52,123 bases of DNA from Coleofasciculus chthonoplastes F2-STO-03 (GCA_040222015.1 JAVJWO010000016.1:1-52123), one strand, 5' to 3'; counted from the first letter of the stretch, positions 27,001 through 36,000 are shown. A program made the numbers.

Positions 27001-30000
27001 TAAAAATTCACACAAATTCAACCTCGATTTTGCCCGTGAGAGATGGGGAATTTATTTTATCTGTTTTCGCACCCTTTTTACTCTAATTGTTCAAGATTAA
27101 CTGTTCTTGATTGGGGATAAACAATCACCCACTCTAAGGCATCTAGAGGCGCTGTCAACTCAATGACAGCTTCGGGGGCGGGACTTTTATCCAGGTTGAC
27201 TGACTCCACACGTCCTAATGGTAACCCAGCCGGAAACAATTTACTCACTGGTGATGTGGAAACAGCATCCCCCCGACGGACATCAGGTACTTTATCAAAA
27301 AACTGGAGTACCGCCCGATGTGATCCTTGTCCTTGAATAAACCCCATGCTACGGCTGCGACTAATCACAGCTCCTACCCGGCTAGTCGCGTCACTGATCA
27401 GGAGTACACGACTGGTATTAGGGGTTACATTGACAATCTGACCCACCAAACCGCCAGGTGCCATCACAATAGAATGCACCTTAATCCCATCTCGGCTCCC
27501 TCGACCCAACGTTACATGTTGCCACCAGTGACCCGCACTACGCCCAATAATAGGGGCAAGGATTCCTTGCTGTTTTTTGGTTTTAGAATACTCCAGCAGC
27601 TCTTTGAGTTTTTGGTTTTGGCTCTCAAGTTCAATCAGACGCTGTTGTAGTTCGAGAACTTTGGCATTTGTCAGACGCTCTTCTTGTGTCGGTTCTGATT
27701 GTAAGGGGCGGGTCAATAACTGATAAGCCTCAAAGAGAGCTGCACCCTGAGTTTGGCGAACGAACCAAGCAAGGCTTAGAGTTAGTCCCCCCAGCACAAC
27801 AGCGACTCCATGTTTGTCCCACCAACGACGCAATATATACATAACCTGTCCAGTATTCGTTCAGCTTCCGGCTGATGCGCCAGAGTTGCAATAGTGCAGT
27901 TGACTTCTCATGCAGCTTGTGAACCAACCAAGGTTGCTCTCTAAGAGATTATCACCTTAGATATGGCGAGAGCGCCCACTAAACACCCGTTCTAGCTGTT
28001 TGAAGTTCTCAAGAACACGACCTGTGCCTAAAACCACACAACTTAGGGGATCAGCCGCTACATGAGTCACAATACCTGTTTCGTGACTAATCAACGTATC
28101 TAGCCCTTTTAGTAAGGCACCACCACCCGCTAACATGATGCCTCGATCAATAATATCGGCAGCGAGTTCAGGTGGTGTCCGCTCTAAAGTCCGTTTTACC
28201 GCATCAACGATGACTGAAAGCGGTTCGGACATACTTTCGCGAATTTCGGGTCCCTTGATACTCACAGTTCGCGGTAAACCAGACAGCAAGTGTAAGCCGC
28301 GTACTTCCATGGAGAAATCATCGTCCTCATGAGTCGGGTAGGCTGAACCAATCTGAATTTTTATTTCTTCAGCCGTTCGCTCCCCAATCACCAGGTTATG
28401 GACTTTTTTCATGTACTGGGTGATCGATTCACTCAGTTCATCACCAGCGACCCGTACCGATTCGCTCAAAACGGTACCTTGTAAACTGAGTACCGCGACT
28501 TCTGTCGTCCCACCACCGATATCAATAATCATATTACCGGTTGGTTCTGCCACTGGCAGCCCCGCACCGATGGCAGCAGCAACAGGTTCATCGATCAAGT
28601 ACACATCTCTGGCACCTGCTTGAGATGCAGCTTCCATAACTGCCCGCCGTTCTACACCGGTTACACCACTGGGAATCCCAATGACAATCCGAGGTTGAAC
28701 TAAAGTACGCCCTTCATGAACTCGCCGGATAAAATGCTTGAGCATGAGTTCGGCGGTATCGAAGTCAGCAATCACACCATCGCGTAAAGGACGCAAGGCG
28801 ACCACGTTACCTGGAGTTCTGCCCAGCATTTTTTTGGCATCCTCTCCCACCGCTAGTGGCACTTTTTCATCTTGGTCCATGGCGACGACAGAAGGCTCCT
28901 GGAGTACGATGCCTTTGCCAGATACATATACTAAAGTATTAGCTGTACCTAAATCGATACCCATGTCCCGGGATAAGGAAAAGCGACTGAAAATACCCAC
29001 TTGTTTATACGCCCCCAAGGTCGAATGTTTCTATGTATAACAAACAATGTATCTGAACTGTAACCGAGGTGGATTCTATTACGTTTTTTTGGCTGAGTCT
29101 AGTGAAGTTGATAAAGTCATCGCTATTCATCTTTGAAAACCAAGCTGAAAGTATCATTCAGACGACAAAATTGCTGATCCGGAGAAAGTCAAGGTCACAA
29201 GCGAGGGTGAATCACGGCAATTGGCATGCCTCCAGTAGGGCTTAAGGGATTGTGGACAACGGTATAAATTCGCTAAACTAATTACAAATCAGTACAAGGG
29301 TACTAAAAAAATGAGTCTCAATGTAGTTAATTTAGTTGGTCGAGTGGGCGCAGACCCAGATGTCAGGTATTTCGGTGCGACCCGTTAGATGGGAAAGTTA
29401 CCCCCTTGGGTAACGTGCCATCTGCGTAGATTATGACAACCAATGTCATAAGTCTACGACAACTGGGTGTTTGGGTAGGTGAGGGTCAAACCAATTCCTA
29501 CCGTCGTGATGCAGACGAGGCAACACTCCCACTGGAGAGACTGACTATCAACCTGGTGAAGCGGGGTGTAACGAAGGTAATCACAAACCCATTGTGAAAT
29601 CCCTTCTAGCCGAGATGAGTACGAGTAAGGTTAACTGAATCCATGTCTGAACCGTCGTAACTGATAACAGCCTACATGGGTTATTGGCTGAGCCAAAAGG
29701 CAAGGATAAGGGCTGGGCAACTCGAAGTTTGACCCAGGGCATCCCCAAAGAAACCCGGCGGATAGTGGAACTCTAACCTCATCGCCAAGCAAACACCCGG
29801 AACGGGGTAATCCAGCGTACATCTCTCGGATTGGTCGATAACCGAGTAGGCAGTCAAGCCGCATGATTACGTTGGACAAGATTGACTCAGAAGCAAACGC
29901 CTTTAGGAAACTAAGGGATACGCCCACGGAGTCACGGTTATTTGGAGATGGAGAATCAAGTAAGAGTCAATAAGTTATGAACACGGTTAAACCGATGTAT

Positions 30001-33000: not shown

Positions 33001-36000
33001 GACCACATCACCCTCTTAGAAAAACTCAATACATTCCCTGTCCTACGCCGTCAAATAAAAGCATGGCTTAAAGCAGGAGTTATAGATAGGGGAACCTTCT
33101 CAAAAACAGAGAAAGGAACACCGCCATCGGGTGTGATATCGCCACTACTAGCCAACATAGCCTTACACGGTTTTGAGGATTACATTTCAAGCTTTAAAAA
33201 GGCTGGAAGGTATCCCAATGGTCAGGCTAAAAAGTCGAGCGCAACAGTGATCAGATACGCTGATGACTTTGTAATACTGCACGAATCTAAAGAATTTGTG
33301 GAGTACCTACAACAAAAGGCGGAAGAATGGTTGAGCAGAATGGGACTAGAATTGAAGGCTAGTAAAACCAGGGTATGCCATACATCCGAAGGATTTGATT
33401 TTCTCGGATTTAACGTAAGGCAGTATAAGGTAGGTGCATACCGAGCTGCAAAAGTGGGGAAAGCCGGACGGCAAGAACCCATAAACCTTGGTTTTAAAGC
33501 ACTCATCAAGCCCAGCAACAAGGCAATTAAACAGCATCTAGACGAAATCAAAAGAATTATCAAGGCACATCACGGTTCACCCCAAGAAGCCTTGATAAGT
33601 AGATTAAATCCGGTCATAAGAGGCTGGTGCAACTACTATTCGTCTGTATCGAGCAAAGACACATTCTCTGAATGTGGAAGCTTGGTATTCTCCATGTTAA
33701 AAGCCTGGGCAAAACGCAAGTGTACGAGACGTAATTCCTCTGAGATCATCCGAAAATATTGGAGAACAATAGGAGGAGACAATTGGGCATTTGCTACCGA
33801 AGATGGACACAAACTAATCAAACACCAAGAAACGCCCATAGTCAGGCACAATAAAATACAAGGTGTAAGTAGTCCATTCGACGGAAGAGATTCATACTGG
33901 AGTCTAAGAACAAAGAGCTATCCTGGATTAATTCCTAGAGGAAAGAAACTTTGGGAACGCCAGAAGGGAAAATGCGAATACTGTGGATTATTGTTCAGGA
34001 ACGAAGACGTGATGGAAGTCGATCACAAAACACCTCCCTTGTTTAGGGGGATAAGATACGATGAATAACCTACAGCTTCTACACGCGCATTGTCACGATG
34101 TCAAGGGTACGCATGAAAAGCGCCAATCCACCGAGGAGCCGTGTGCGGTGAAAGTTGCAAGCACGGTTTTGAAAGAGAGGGTAACGAAGTAATTCGTTAT
34201 TCGACTCGAACAAGTGGCGGCAAATTACGTGCGGAAGGGGAGCTTGATTGGGATTCAAGGAGCGCTGAAGATTGATCCGTTAACCACGCGGGATGGTCAC
34301 AATTATCACAAGCCCGTTATCCGGGTGGATCGAATGGATTTGTTAGGATCTAAACGAGATAATGATCCCAGCACGGTCGATCACTACAGCGAGACAGAGT
34401 TCTAAACGTTAGTAGCTAATTTGCAGGGTTACGGATGCCTGTACCTCTTGCTCACCACCAATAATGGGTGTCGGAGCATTTTGGGCAAAGGACTCCGCCC
34501 TGCTCATCAGCGGCATGGGTGGAGACGGTGGTGTGGCACCATTAATTTGAATGTTCACGATATCTTGACGGGTGAGGTTCAAGGTATTTAACACCGCATC
34601 GGCTTGCTGTTGGGCATCCTGAGTGGCTTCTCGTAGTGCTTGTTTTTGAGCCGTGGCGATCGCACTTTCGGGGGCGGTAAAGCTAATCGAGTCGATGCGG
34701 GTAGCACCAGCAGCCACAGCATCATCCAAAAGGCTTCCCGCCTGTTCTGTGGGAATGCGGAAACTGACCGTGTTACTGGCAGAATACCCGATCAGGCGTT
34801 GCTGATTGTTCTCATAGCTATAGACAGGGTTGAGCTGGATACTGGTGGTTTGGAGTTGTTCAACATTACGCGATCGCAGCAACTCCACCACCGCCGCTGA
34901 CTGACGTGCCACTTCTTGTTGCACCTGTTGTGCTGTTTTTCCCTGTACCTCAACCCCTAACTGCACTCGGGTCAAAGTTGTGGGAATTCGTTCTACGCCT
35001 TGTCCGGTTACCGTGAGCGTTCGTAACAATCGCTCCTGCGCGATCGCGGGATTTATGCATCCGAGCATCACTAAACCCAAAACCCCAGCCATCACCTGTA
35101 ACTTTTTTTGGCTCAGAAAACGGGAACATAAATCTGTCATTTTATAAATTCTCCAAACACCGATAGATTAAGCCTTAACTTTGACACCATAGAGCATTAT
35201 CATTTCTGGGGTTCTGAACTGTTGCGGTTAAAATTGTAGAATATTGTAGATATATAGTAAAATATTCGGAAGCTTCTTGGGATATTGTCGGGGGCGGCAT
35301 CGCCATGAAATTGGTCTCTAGACACGTCATCAACCGAAATCATGCCTACTGGCAGGAGGCAGATGCATTGGCGTTTAAGTCAAAGAATCTTTACAACAGC
35401 GCCAATTATTTGTGCCGTCAACACTTCTTTGAAACGGGTAATCGGTATACCCTACCAACTCTCTATCACTTAGTTAAAGATAGTGAGTCTTATCGAGCAA
35501 TGCCGACCAAAGTCTCGAAACAAATCATTAAAAAGCTGGTGGAGACTTGGAAATCTTATATGGCGGCTCACCAAGATTGGTTACAGCACCCAAACAAATA
35601 CAAGAGTGAACCCCGCCTTCCTCGATACAAGGACAAGGTCAAAGGTCGAAACATCGTCATTTACCATCACGAGTCCATATACAAGGCTGACCTAAAGCAA
35701 GGACGCTGCCACTTATCCATGAGTAATATCAGCGTTCCGACTAAGGTCTCTAATATTGTCGAGGCGCGGATTGTTCCGAGTTGCAACTGTTATATTTTGG
35801 AGATTGTCTATGAGTCACCCGATGTCAAGTTAATGAAGTCAGAGTGGGTAGCAGGGATTGATTTAGGTGTCGATAATCTAGTGGCTTTAACGTCAAACCA
35901 ACCCGGTTTTCAGCCAATGTTGGTTAATGGAAGACCACTTAAGAGTCGAAACCAATACTACAACAAGCTCAAAGCTTTCCTCCAAAGCAACCTACCAGCC

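Follow-up and report, generated by a model that had tools for sequence, protein, structure and literature searches.

The gene for a short single-stranded-DNA-binding protein (ssb) in Coleofasciculus chthonoplastes F2-STO-03 (G000) is divided into three exons by two group II introns. The best explanation of our data, to which we assign a probability of roughly 80%, is that two different IIB-type introns inserted into this gene and are spliced out to give a 120-aa SSB. A separate full-length SSB with a partner-binding acidic tail is present in the genome, so splicing is required to make this particular paralog but not, demonstrably, for replication itself. The window analyzed here is positions 1-52,123 of contig C16, to which all coordinates refer unless another contig is named.

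Exon-intron structure of the split ssb gene

The 363-nt ssb consists of three exons around two group II introns, with the following coordinates read directly from the G000 sequence:

27957..29018, minus strand, mreB, the divergent neighbor (Pfam MreB_Mbl, 496 bits)
29311..29374, plus strand, ssb exon 1 (ATG...TTC G; 21 codons and the first base, G, of Glu-22; collinear with congeners)
29361-29366 and 29369-29374, plus strand, IBS2 (TGTCAG) and IBS1 (ATTTCG) in exon 1
29375..31747, plus strand, group II intron 1 (2373 nt; GTGCG...AAT)
29977..31602, plus strand, intron-1 encoded protein, IEP1 (541 aa; RVT_N, RVT_1 and GIIM domains; YADD motif; TIGR04416, 328.5 bits)
31748..31852, plus strand, ssb exon 2 (105 nt; residues 22-57 in part; PF00436, 19.3 bits over 31738-31854)
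31846-31852, plus strand, IBS1 (ACAGCAG) in exon 2
31853..34211, plus strand, group II intron 2 (2359 nt; GTGCG...AAC)
32428..34068, plus strand, intron-2 encoded protein, IEP2 (546 aa from GTG; RVT_N, RVT_1 and GIIM domains; YADD motif; TIGR04416, 328 bits)
34212..34405, plus strand, ssb exon 3 (last two bases of Glu-57 to stop codon TAA at 34403-34405; PF00436, 23.8 bits)

All exon and intron coordinates and lengths in the first-pass annotation agree with this reading, as does its description of exon 3 as a 63-aa fragment, which is an open frame at 34214-34405. Each intron interrupts a Glu codon behind its G (phase 1), and the two are separated by the 105 nt of exon 2 and do not form a twintron.

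When the three exons were joined by script according to these coordinates, the resulting 363 nt translated without a stop into 120 aa, bearing out the earlier proposal that removal of the introns restores a collinear SSB. Searched against family loci (tblastn), the joined product gave a single HSP over residues 1-120 at 25 of 29 loci. These include seven of the eight congeners, in which the gene is uninterrupted and 92.5-95% identical; the eighth congener locus is cut at residue 8 by a contig end, and the other three family loci are themselves interrupted or frameshifted. Congener DNA aligns with the joined exons without gaps, and codon differences to the seven congeners are mostly synonymous (17-30 synonymous versus 6-9 nonsynonymous), though the substitutions specific to G000 (three synonymous, two nonsynonymous) are too few to show selection on its lineage alone. 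Open frames of 99 and 71 aa in relatives, which had been counted as uninterrupted genes, are really intron-bearing alleles. A 72-aa open frame in another genome (G040) was also considered as an intron allele and was rejected, since it has a frameshift at residues 53/54 and no insert.

Intron RNAs and exon recognition

Both elements are real group II introns, chloroplast-like (IIB-type), with borders exactly as given above. Rfam matches to domain V/VI (RF00029, gathering score 40) at 31670-31747 (63.7 bits, E 5e-11) and 34134-34211 (58.5 bits, E 1e-9) end on the final bases of introns 1 and 2, respectively, as had been reported, and both introns conform to the 5' GUGYG / 3' AY border rule. Candidate bulged branch A residues in domain VI, read by eye from the alignment, lie 7-8 nt from the intron ends at 31740 and 34204. 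No further group II intron was detected in the 7.7-Mb genome, and we reproduced the earlier observation that each is single-copy and that the two are 67% identical (here over about 830 nt).

The introns carry EBS1 sequences in homologous hairpin loops, each complementary to the exon immediately upstream. EBS1 of intron 1 (CGAAGT, 29723-29728) pairs with its IBS1 through five Watson-Crick pairs and one GU pair, and EBS1 of intron 2 (CTGCTGT, 32195-32201) matches its IBS1 at seven of seven positions by Watson-Crick pairing. Intron 1 also has an EBS2 (CTGATA, 29661-29666) whose partner is the IBS2 in exon 1. At this first site EBS2/IBS2 covary with the exon (CTGATA/TGTCAG in G000, CTTAC/GTAAG in G051 and TTGACA/TGTCAA in G037; covariation scored across three other genomes). 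Scanning intron 2 for complementarity and applying RNAduplex turned up no convincing EBS2; a 7-nt match at intron position 103 was set aside as lying in a probable stem. An RNAalifold prediction over the first 620 nt of 11 ssb introns contains 85 pairs, of which 55 show compensatory changes, as would fit a conserved domain I-III fold; this result is supportive rather than independent, as the structure derives from the same alignment.

Intron-encoded proteins

Both intron-encoded proteins retain reverse transcriptase and maturase domains and score above the TIGR04416 cut-off of 300 bits; an alternative start of IEP2 (ATG at 32437) would give 543 aa. Neither has an intact HNH endonuclease of the kind found in the mobile En+ form. 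IEP1 has a 1-nt frameshift near 31579 that interrupts its HNH/En domain and leaves the remaining HNH motif in another frame, and an extra C behind 31579 in one metatranscriptome contig restores the frame. The En domain of IEP2 is broken by a frameshift and an in-frame TAA (34052-34054, HNH frame), a region that shows no differences in record 23 of metatranscriptome run X5 and no indels in record 7 of run X1. The orthologs of the two proteins in G051 are 583 and 584 aa long with a complete HNH motif.

The best solved relative of IEP1 is 6ME0 (6me0_C, E 1.1e-92 over residues 9-529), a group IIB intron RNP with maturase/RT, which we take to be the Thermosynechococcus T.el4h intron. IEP1 shares its domain order (RT, X, D/En), whereas the G000 proteins are without an intact En; the comparison is one of proteins. 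Among the best 80 relatives of IEP2 in species-representative genomes, a single one, L046, at 90% identity, belongs to a split ssb. The remaining 79, with identities of 52-64%, lie outside split ssb genes, one of them (L094) 1.3 kb downstream of an intact ssb. The wider relatives of IEP2 are therefore not bound to ssb, and we rejected an ssb-specialized clade of these proteins on the same count.

Borders, domains V/VI, EBS1 complementarity and undamaged RT and maturase ORFs all suggest that both introns are capable of splicing. Because RT and maturase are kept while the endonuclease domains are damaged, they look like resident, splice-dependent passengers rather than active homing elements. 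Expression of the gene would begin with a single pre-mRNA of about 5.1 kb transcribed from the locus. Each intron would fold as a ribozyme that recognizes its 5' exon via EBS1 (and, for intron 1, EBS2), excision would be aided by the intron's own RT/maturase, and the ligated 363-nt mRNA would be translated into a 120-aa OB-fold SSB.

Evidence for splicing in metatranscriptomes

The proposal of splicing had originally been made from DNA; assembled contigs from RNA libraries (four runs, in which DNA carry-over is possible) lend it weak direct support for intron 2. One 151-nt contig from run X5 (depth 2.1) joins 31852 to 34212 exactly, with 72 and 79 nt on either side and no differences to G000, skipping 2359 nt (GT..AC). 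This contig points to ligation of exons 2 and 3 in RNA, so that splicing of intron 2 is partly shown. No junction of exons 1 and 2 was seen in the four runs, where cover at that position is thin, consists of contigs only and is uninformative either way; splicing of intron 1 is presumed from its sequence features. Record 11 of run X2 spans the border of intron 1 and exon 2 (130 and 103 nt on either side), and X1 records 1, 7 and 8, which reach exon/intron borders with fewer than 31 nt on one side, were not counted as bridging contigs.

The junction contig is not decisive, because the same picture would arise from carried-over DNA or from an allele without the intron elsewhere in the population. 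The contig could thus represent such an allele, from another chromosome copy or a co-occurring strain, present as DNA or mRNA rather than as spliced RNA. In favor of this, intron-less genes exist in close relatives (all eight congener species), polyploidy is common in cyanobacteria (PMC8919778), and RNA libraries may contain DNA. However, the contig equals G000 over all 151 nt, a stretch in which every one of the eight congeners differs at 9-14 positions, and the same run contains intron-2 pieces with no differences to G000. We regard this origin of the contig as unlikely, and spliced G000 transcript as the better account of it.

A second SSB in the genome

The first-pass annotation described the split gene as the only canonical ssb and concluded that two splicing events are required for an essential replication protein, allowing that a second ssb might have gone undetected. 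A PF00436 profile search of the genome finds that second gene at C72:20289-20852(-), with 61.6 bits against a cut-off of 26; exons 2 and 3 of the split gene, taken alone, fall below this threshold. The C72 protein (188 aa) has the features of a typical full-length SSB: an N-terminal OB fold, a Pro-rich linker and an acidic C-terminal tip (...DDIPF). Its type is conserved family-wide, full-length in 51 of 52 family genomes. With this second gene present, both statements of the first-pass annotation are unsupported as worded. A third SSB-like match (C173, E 1.7), inside a 493-aa frame, was dismissed as noise.

The spliced product is not a typical full-length SSB: it stops 13 residues past the OB region (...ETEF) and has no linker. 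Its scores on the NCBIfam models were taken by proxy from a congener ortholog 95% identical to it, which reaches 180.7 bits on NF005674 (cut-off 161) and 102.9 bits on TIGR00621 (cut-off 53.95); the C72 protein scores 25.7 bits on the latter, below the cut-off. The split type alone passes the NCBIfam ssb models, and the wording "only canonical" has a basis in that respect.

This pair resembles the two SSBs of Anabaena, where the typical major SSB is All4779 (182 aa) and Alr0088 (119 aa) is truncated and tail-less (Kirti et al. 2014, PMC3976300). In Anabaena PCC 7120, primers spanning all0087 (mreB) and alr0088 (ssb) have been described (PMC7593598), and mreB likewise adjoins the split gene, whose product, like Alr0088, comprises the OB fold only. 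The C72 protein shares the linker and acidic tip of All4779. Orthology with Alr0088 and All4779 is based on length, architecture, synteny and NCBIfam model; by these characters the split gene is a short tail-less SSB of the Alr0088/Slr0925 type. Since a second SSB exists, loss of the split gene might be tolerated.

Recurrence in other cyanobacteria

Group II introns interrupt the short ssb in at least 24 genomes from four families. Their four insertion points fall within 110 nt, each in or beside the G|AR of a Glu codon and each with its own intron lineage and matching EBS1. Both G000 sites are occupied in G051, a member of another genus. Two genera with about 70% identity between their ssb genes have copies of intron 2 that are 89% identical, and some ssb intron lineages appear to have spread horizontally. 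Others appear to pass vertically as ORF-less introns throughout a genus, as in g82, where 11 of 12 sampled genomes carry one in the short ssb. Stacked variants include a twintron and a pair of introns separated by a 1-nt micro-exon, with true nesting of one intron in another only in the relative G174.

This distribution bears on whether the split ssb is dead or dying, with inefficient splicing and the C72 SSB covering all SSB functions. Such decay would fit the conserved, canonical architecture of the second SSB, the damaged En domains of both intron-encoded proteins and a lineage-specific selection signal too weak to call, but we consider it improbable: the three exons are intact, in phase and diverge from congeners mostly at synonymous positions, RT and maturase are intact, EBS1 complements IBS1 in both introns, an exact ligated junction occurs in an RNA library, and the same gene bears introns across four families. 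The genus-wide intron of g82 is hard to reconcile with a dead gene, as a survey of 76 cyanobacteria found this ssb type in every one (PMC5101192), and it gives indirect support to a functional split gene. Mis-joining of introns from elsewhere into ssb during assembly is conceivable in a draft of 219 contigs but can be dismissed, as the same two sites are occupied in another genus, an X2 contig crosses the intron 1/exon 2 border and each intron is single-copy.

More speculatively, the short ssb may be a long-standing preferred harbor for a guild of site-specific introns, with a functional link beyond target conservation; we find this doubtful. If true, splicing could control how much of a DNA-damage-related SSB is made, or an intron residing in ssb could be expressed just when ssDNA targets for En-independent retrohoming are at hand.

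Relation to known systems and implications

Conserved cyanobacterial genes with more than one chloroplast-like group II intron are already known. In Trichodesmium erythraeum, 10 host genes contain 17 spliced group II introns, and a ribonucleotide reductase gene has three (PMC4143802 and its reference list; twintron paper, PMC4649490). As with ssb, only some of these introns contain maturases and the exons are missed by gene callers, whereas the Trichodesmium genome has many introns rather than two, its introns are known to be spliced (in G000 the support is one contig) and the host gene here is ssb. Neither "ssb" nor "single-strand" occurs in the text of these two papers, and we found no published account of an ssb split by group II introns in the literature searched. 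The recA gene of Geobacillus kaustophilus, interrupted by a group II intron (Chee & Takami 2005, cited in PMC2504315), is likewise a housekeeping gene of DNA metabolism hosting an RT-encoding intron, an exception to the rule that conserved genes are generally avoided by bacterial group II introns (PMC2504315). That case involves one intron in a Firmicute, in contrast to the two introns, the additional paralog, the four sites and the four families described here.

A core cyanobacterial gene of DNA metabolism is invisible to gene callers in G000, where only the 63-aa fragment is called, and likewise in at least 24 genomes, so that comparative and completeness analyses would count ssb as absent or truncated. 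G000 does not depend on splicing for its only SSB, because the full-length tail-bearing paralog exists. The split gene is a clear counter-example to the avoidance rule, with the only two introns of a 7.7-Mb genome sharing one 363-nt gene. The ssb introns form a natural series of neighboring targets with matched EBS1 loops, in En+, En-defective and ORF-less forms and with a micro-exon and a twintron, which may serve to study target-site shifts, obligatory splicing order, horizontal versus vertical inheritance and the rules of retargeting.

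Structure of the split ssb gene

Direct reading of the sequence bore out every exon and intron boundary that the first-pass annotation had placed in the short ssb gene of Coleofasciculus chthonoplastes F2-STO-03 (G000).

Features of the split ssb gene and its downstream neighbours (contig positions, strand, description)
29311-29374, +, ssb exon 1, starting with ATG and ending TTC G
29375-31747, +, group II intron 1 (GTGCG...AAT)
29977-31602, +, ORF of intron 1 (IEP1), 541 aa, with RVT_N, RVT_1 and group II maturase domains
31748-31852, +, ssb exon 2
31853-34211, +, group II intron 2 (GTGCG...AAC)
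32428-34068, +, ORF of intron 2 (IEP2), 546 aa, with RVT_N, RVT_1 and group II maturase domains
34212-34405, +, ssb exon 3, with stop codon TAA
34409-35140, -, SIMPL/DUF541 gene, between ssb and the TnpB gene
35305-36504, +, TnpB/OrfB_IS605 protein, 399 aa, with a Cas12f-like TNB domain

As had also been claimed, the matches to the group II domain V/VI model (Rfam RF00029, gathering score 40) terminate at the final base of each intron (31670-31747, 63.7 bits; 34134-34211, 58.5 bits), and joining the exons by coordinates with a script gives 363 nt, or 120 stop-free codons. Each splice point, the first at 64 nt and the second at 64 + 105 = 169 nt, directly follows the opening base of a Glu codon. 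Searched by tblastn against the 29 best family loci, the joined product formed a single HSP spanning residues 1-120 in 25, among them seven of eight congeners at 92.5-95% identity; in the eighth congener a contig end lets the match begin only at residue 8, and the other three loci are themselves interrupted (relatives G037 and G051) or frameshifted (G040). Congener ssb DNA aligned with the joined exons along all 363 nt with no gaps and 89-93% identity. The unpublished genome G005 supplies one row each to this tblastn tally, the congener DNA comparison, the exon-3 peptide census and the census of the second SSB type described below, and no statement hinges on it. The alignments indicate that the exon model is right, and the observation as a whole is confirmed.

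Downstream, the SIMPL/DUF541 gene ends 4 nt after the ssb stop, and the TnpB/OrfB_IS605 gene lies 0.9 kb from ssb.

Ribozymes and intron-encoded proteins

In an alignment of intron 5' parts, a hairpin bearing the exon binding site EBS1 stood at the matching position in every intron. The intron 1 loop, CGAAGT (29723-29728), forms five Watson-Crick pairs and one GU pair with the end of exon 1 (ATTTCG), while that of intron 2, CTGCTGT (32195-32201), forms seven of seven pairs with the end of exon 2 (ACAGCAG). At the first insertion site, EBS2 of G000 (CTGATA, 29661-29666) pairs with TGTCAG of exon 1, and co-varies with the exon elsewhere (CTTAC/GTAAG in G051, TTGACA/TGTCAA in G037); an EBS2 was searched for in intron 2 and none was found. 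For 11 ssb introns, RNAalifold predicted 85 pairs within the 5' 620 nt, 55 of them with compensatory changes. From these features, both ribozymes look competent. The intron-2 EBS1 of G051 (CGGCTGT) has a G-G mismatch at -2 with its exon end (ACAGCGG), compared with the perfect 7-bp pairing in G000.

Each intron contains one long ORF, and both products carry YADD and score 328 bits on the NCBIfam group II RT/maturase equivalog (cut-off 300); among solved structures, IEP1 comes closest to the group IIB RNP maturase/RT (6me0_C, E 1e-92). The orthologs in G051 (583 and 584 aa) continue through a full HNH motif into domain V. IEP1 terminates within its HNH domain, with the remainder of the motif in another frame after a one-base shift near 31579. 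Since a metatranscriptome contig (run X5, record 18; 4 differences over 295 nt) has one additional C behind 31579, which restores the frame and would give a full HNH domain, this lesion may be a strain-level polymorphism or an assembly error; a variant in run X1 has two inserted bases at the same spot (window 31577-31580). IEP2 has a frameshift and an in-frame TAA (34052-34054), and its lesion is real, given that X5 record 23 shows no difference there and X1 record 7 no indels. Both proteins retain reverse transcriptase and maturase, and neither retains an intact endonuclease domain.

The two introns are 67% identical over ~830 nt and, as previously noted, each is single-copy: they account for the only two RF00029 matches in G000 (150 of 412 initial candidates scored) and the only two maturase-domain matches (43 of 43 scored).

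RNA evidence

We compared the region 29200-34500 with four RNA-library runs from three studies, all available as assembled contigs. One 151-nt contig in X5 (depth 2.1) joins 31852 directly to 34212, skipping exactly 2359 nt (GT..AC), with flanks of 72 and 79 nt, and matches the window at every base. Each of the eight congener species shows 9-14 differences over this stretch, so the contig comes from a G000-like strain. It is what intron-2 splicing predicts. The contig may alternatively stem from library DNA, or from an allele lacking the intron, rather than from spliced RNA; X5 also contains pieces of intron 2 (32278-32472 and 33946-34163) with no differences. In run X2, record 11 crosses the unspliced border of intron 1 and exon 2 (130 + 103 nt), which shows the intron-bearing form to be present in a second study. 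No exon 1-exon 2 junction was found in the four runs, whose cover of this region is too thin to be informative. For an SSB paralog with splicing-dependent expression, the structure is well supported and the RNA side partly supported.

A second SSB and the identity of the split gene

The first-pass annotation described the split gene as the only canonical ssb and its product as an essential replication protein. Neither description is established: a Pfam SSB search of the genome recovered a second gene on another contig, C72 (61.6 bits, cut-off 26), encoding a 188-aa product that has its OB fold at the N-terminus, followed by a proline-rich linker, and ends in ...DDIPF. Of the 52 family genomes, 51 hold this type at full length, as do all 42 of good quality; among the matches listed none has an internal stop, and the five shorter ones are at contig ends or in second copies. 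The Anabaena proteins Alr0088 (119 aa) and Alr7579 are described as OB-only and tail-less, and All4779 (182 aa, Pro-rich, with an acidic tail) is in the authors' view the major typical SSB, both kinds being found across cyanobacteria (Kirti et al. 2014, PMC3976300).

The split gene encodes a tail-less product of 120 aa and is divergent from mreB (27957-29018); alr0088 likewise adjoins mreB (all0087; PMC7593598). On NF005674 a congener ortholog of the split gene reaches 180.7 bits, and on TIGR00621 102.9 bits, compared with only 25.7 bits on TIGR00621 for the C72 protein; by such models, the split type is the one annotators name ssb. Because the slr0925-type ssb is reported from all 76 cyanobacteria surveyed, and alr0088 has been linked to UV and mitomycin C tolerance (Cassier-Chauvat et al., PMC5101192), the gene matters.

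ssb introns in relatives

Matches to the exon-3 peptide occurred in 49 of 52 family genomes, and to a congener ORF in 393 of 401 genomes of the order; follow-up was limited to genomes whose open frames were short or whose best matches were weak and split (four family genomes and 20 handles). Group II introns interrupt the short ssb in at least 24 genomes from four families, at four positions. The order sample yielded at least 21 of 401 positive genomes, a lower bound since roughly 380 were not inspected.

Intron positions in the short ssb (genomes by handle)
Site 1, after G of Glu-22, junctions read: G000, G051, G037, G015, G014, G252, G086, G174, G266, G329, G050; split matches only: G330
One base upstream of site 1: second intron of G037, EBS1 GAAATA shifted to fit TATTTC
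Site 3, after G of Glu-50, junctions read: G139, G175, G251, G252, G372, G050; split matches only: G191, G207, G222, G237, G318, G330, G342, G280, G292
Site 2, after G of Glu-57, junctions read: G000, G051

The eight congeners of G000 have no intron in ssb. Intron 2 is 89.1% identical between G000 and G051 over 2357 nt, compared with ~70% for the ssb coding sequences, which points to recent horizontal spread. At site 1, the G000 intron is 69-70% identical to the others, which share 82-88% among themselves across three genera. A split ssb houses only one of the best 80 relatives of IEP2 from species-representative genomes. In one relative's stretch (L094), a group II IEP 58% identical to IEP2 lies ~1.3 kb downstream of an intact short ssb (381-734), the intron being near ssb yet outside the gene.

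Site-3 introns (L039/G139, L040/G175, L042/G252) begin GTGTG, and their EBS1 (CTAAAT) pairs with IBS1 (ATTTAG) at six of six positions. Of the 12 genomes sampled from genus g82, 11 carry the site-3 intron, which where read is 1417-1468 nt long with just a remnant of the IEP N-terminus; this pattern suggests that an ORF-less intron needing maturase in trans has long been maintained by vertical descent. The twelfth genome (G364, 82% complete) showed paralogs only.

In G037 (L035, reverse strand), two group II introns lie 1 nt apart: exon 1 (L035:5276-5214, ...TATTTC) precedes, in order, a 2426-nt intron with an EBS1 (GAAATA) that fits TATTTC, a single G, a 2167-nt site-1 intron and exon 2. Since the IBS1 of the second intron (ATTTCG) needs rebuilding, the upstream intron must go first, and the single G is in effect a micro-exon of 1 nt in an arrangement where the order of splicing is obligatory. 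The 4791-nt site-1 intron of G174 (L126:286-5076) is a true twintron: the outer IEP ORF is broken after residue 28 by an inner group II intron (GTGCGACC... at 1020), whose own IEP shares 39-41% identity with those of G000.

The short ssb of G040 (L030) is frameshifted at residues 53/54, near sites 2 and 3, without an insert, which could be a sequencing error or the scar of imprecise intron loss. Several genomes (G252, G364, G086, G266 and G329) have 2-5 extra, uninterrupted short-SSB paralogs (52-62% identical, frames of 122-183 aa) beside the intron-bearing chromosomal copy.

Comparison with known cases

Conserved or housekeeping genes are said to harbour bacterial group II introns only rarely, recA of Geobacillus being an exception (PMC2504315). 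Trichodesmium is another: 10 of its genes host 17 spliced introns, and it has maturases that act in trans as well as a twintron (PMC4143802, PMC4649490); among cyanobacteria, chloroplast-like IEP classes are reported to dominate (PMC8919778). The split ssb of G000 is the same kind of phenomenon as in Geobacillus recA and the Trichodesmium genes, with ssb as a new host gene; we found no report of ssb in this role in the openly accessible literature. We consider the novelty moderate; the unexpectedly broad, multi-site pattern of ssb introns across cyanobacteria merits a dedicated survey.
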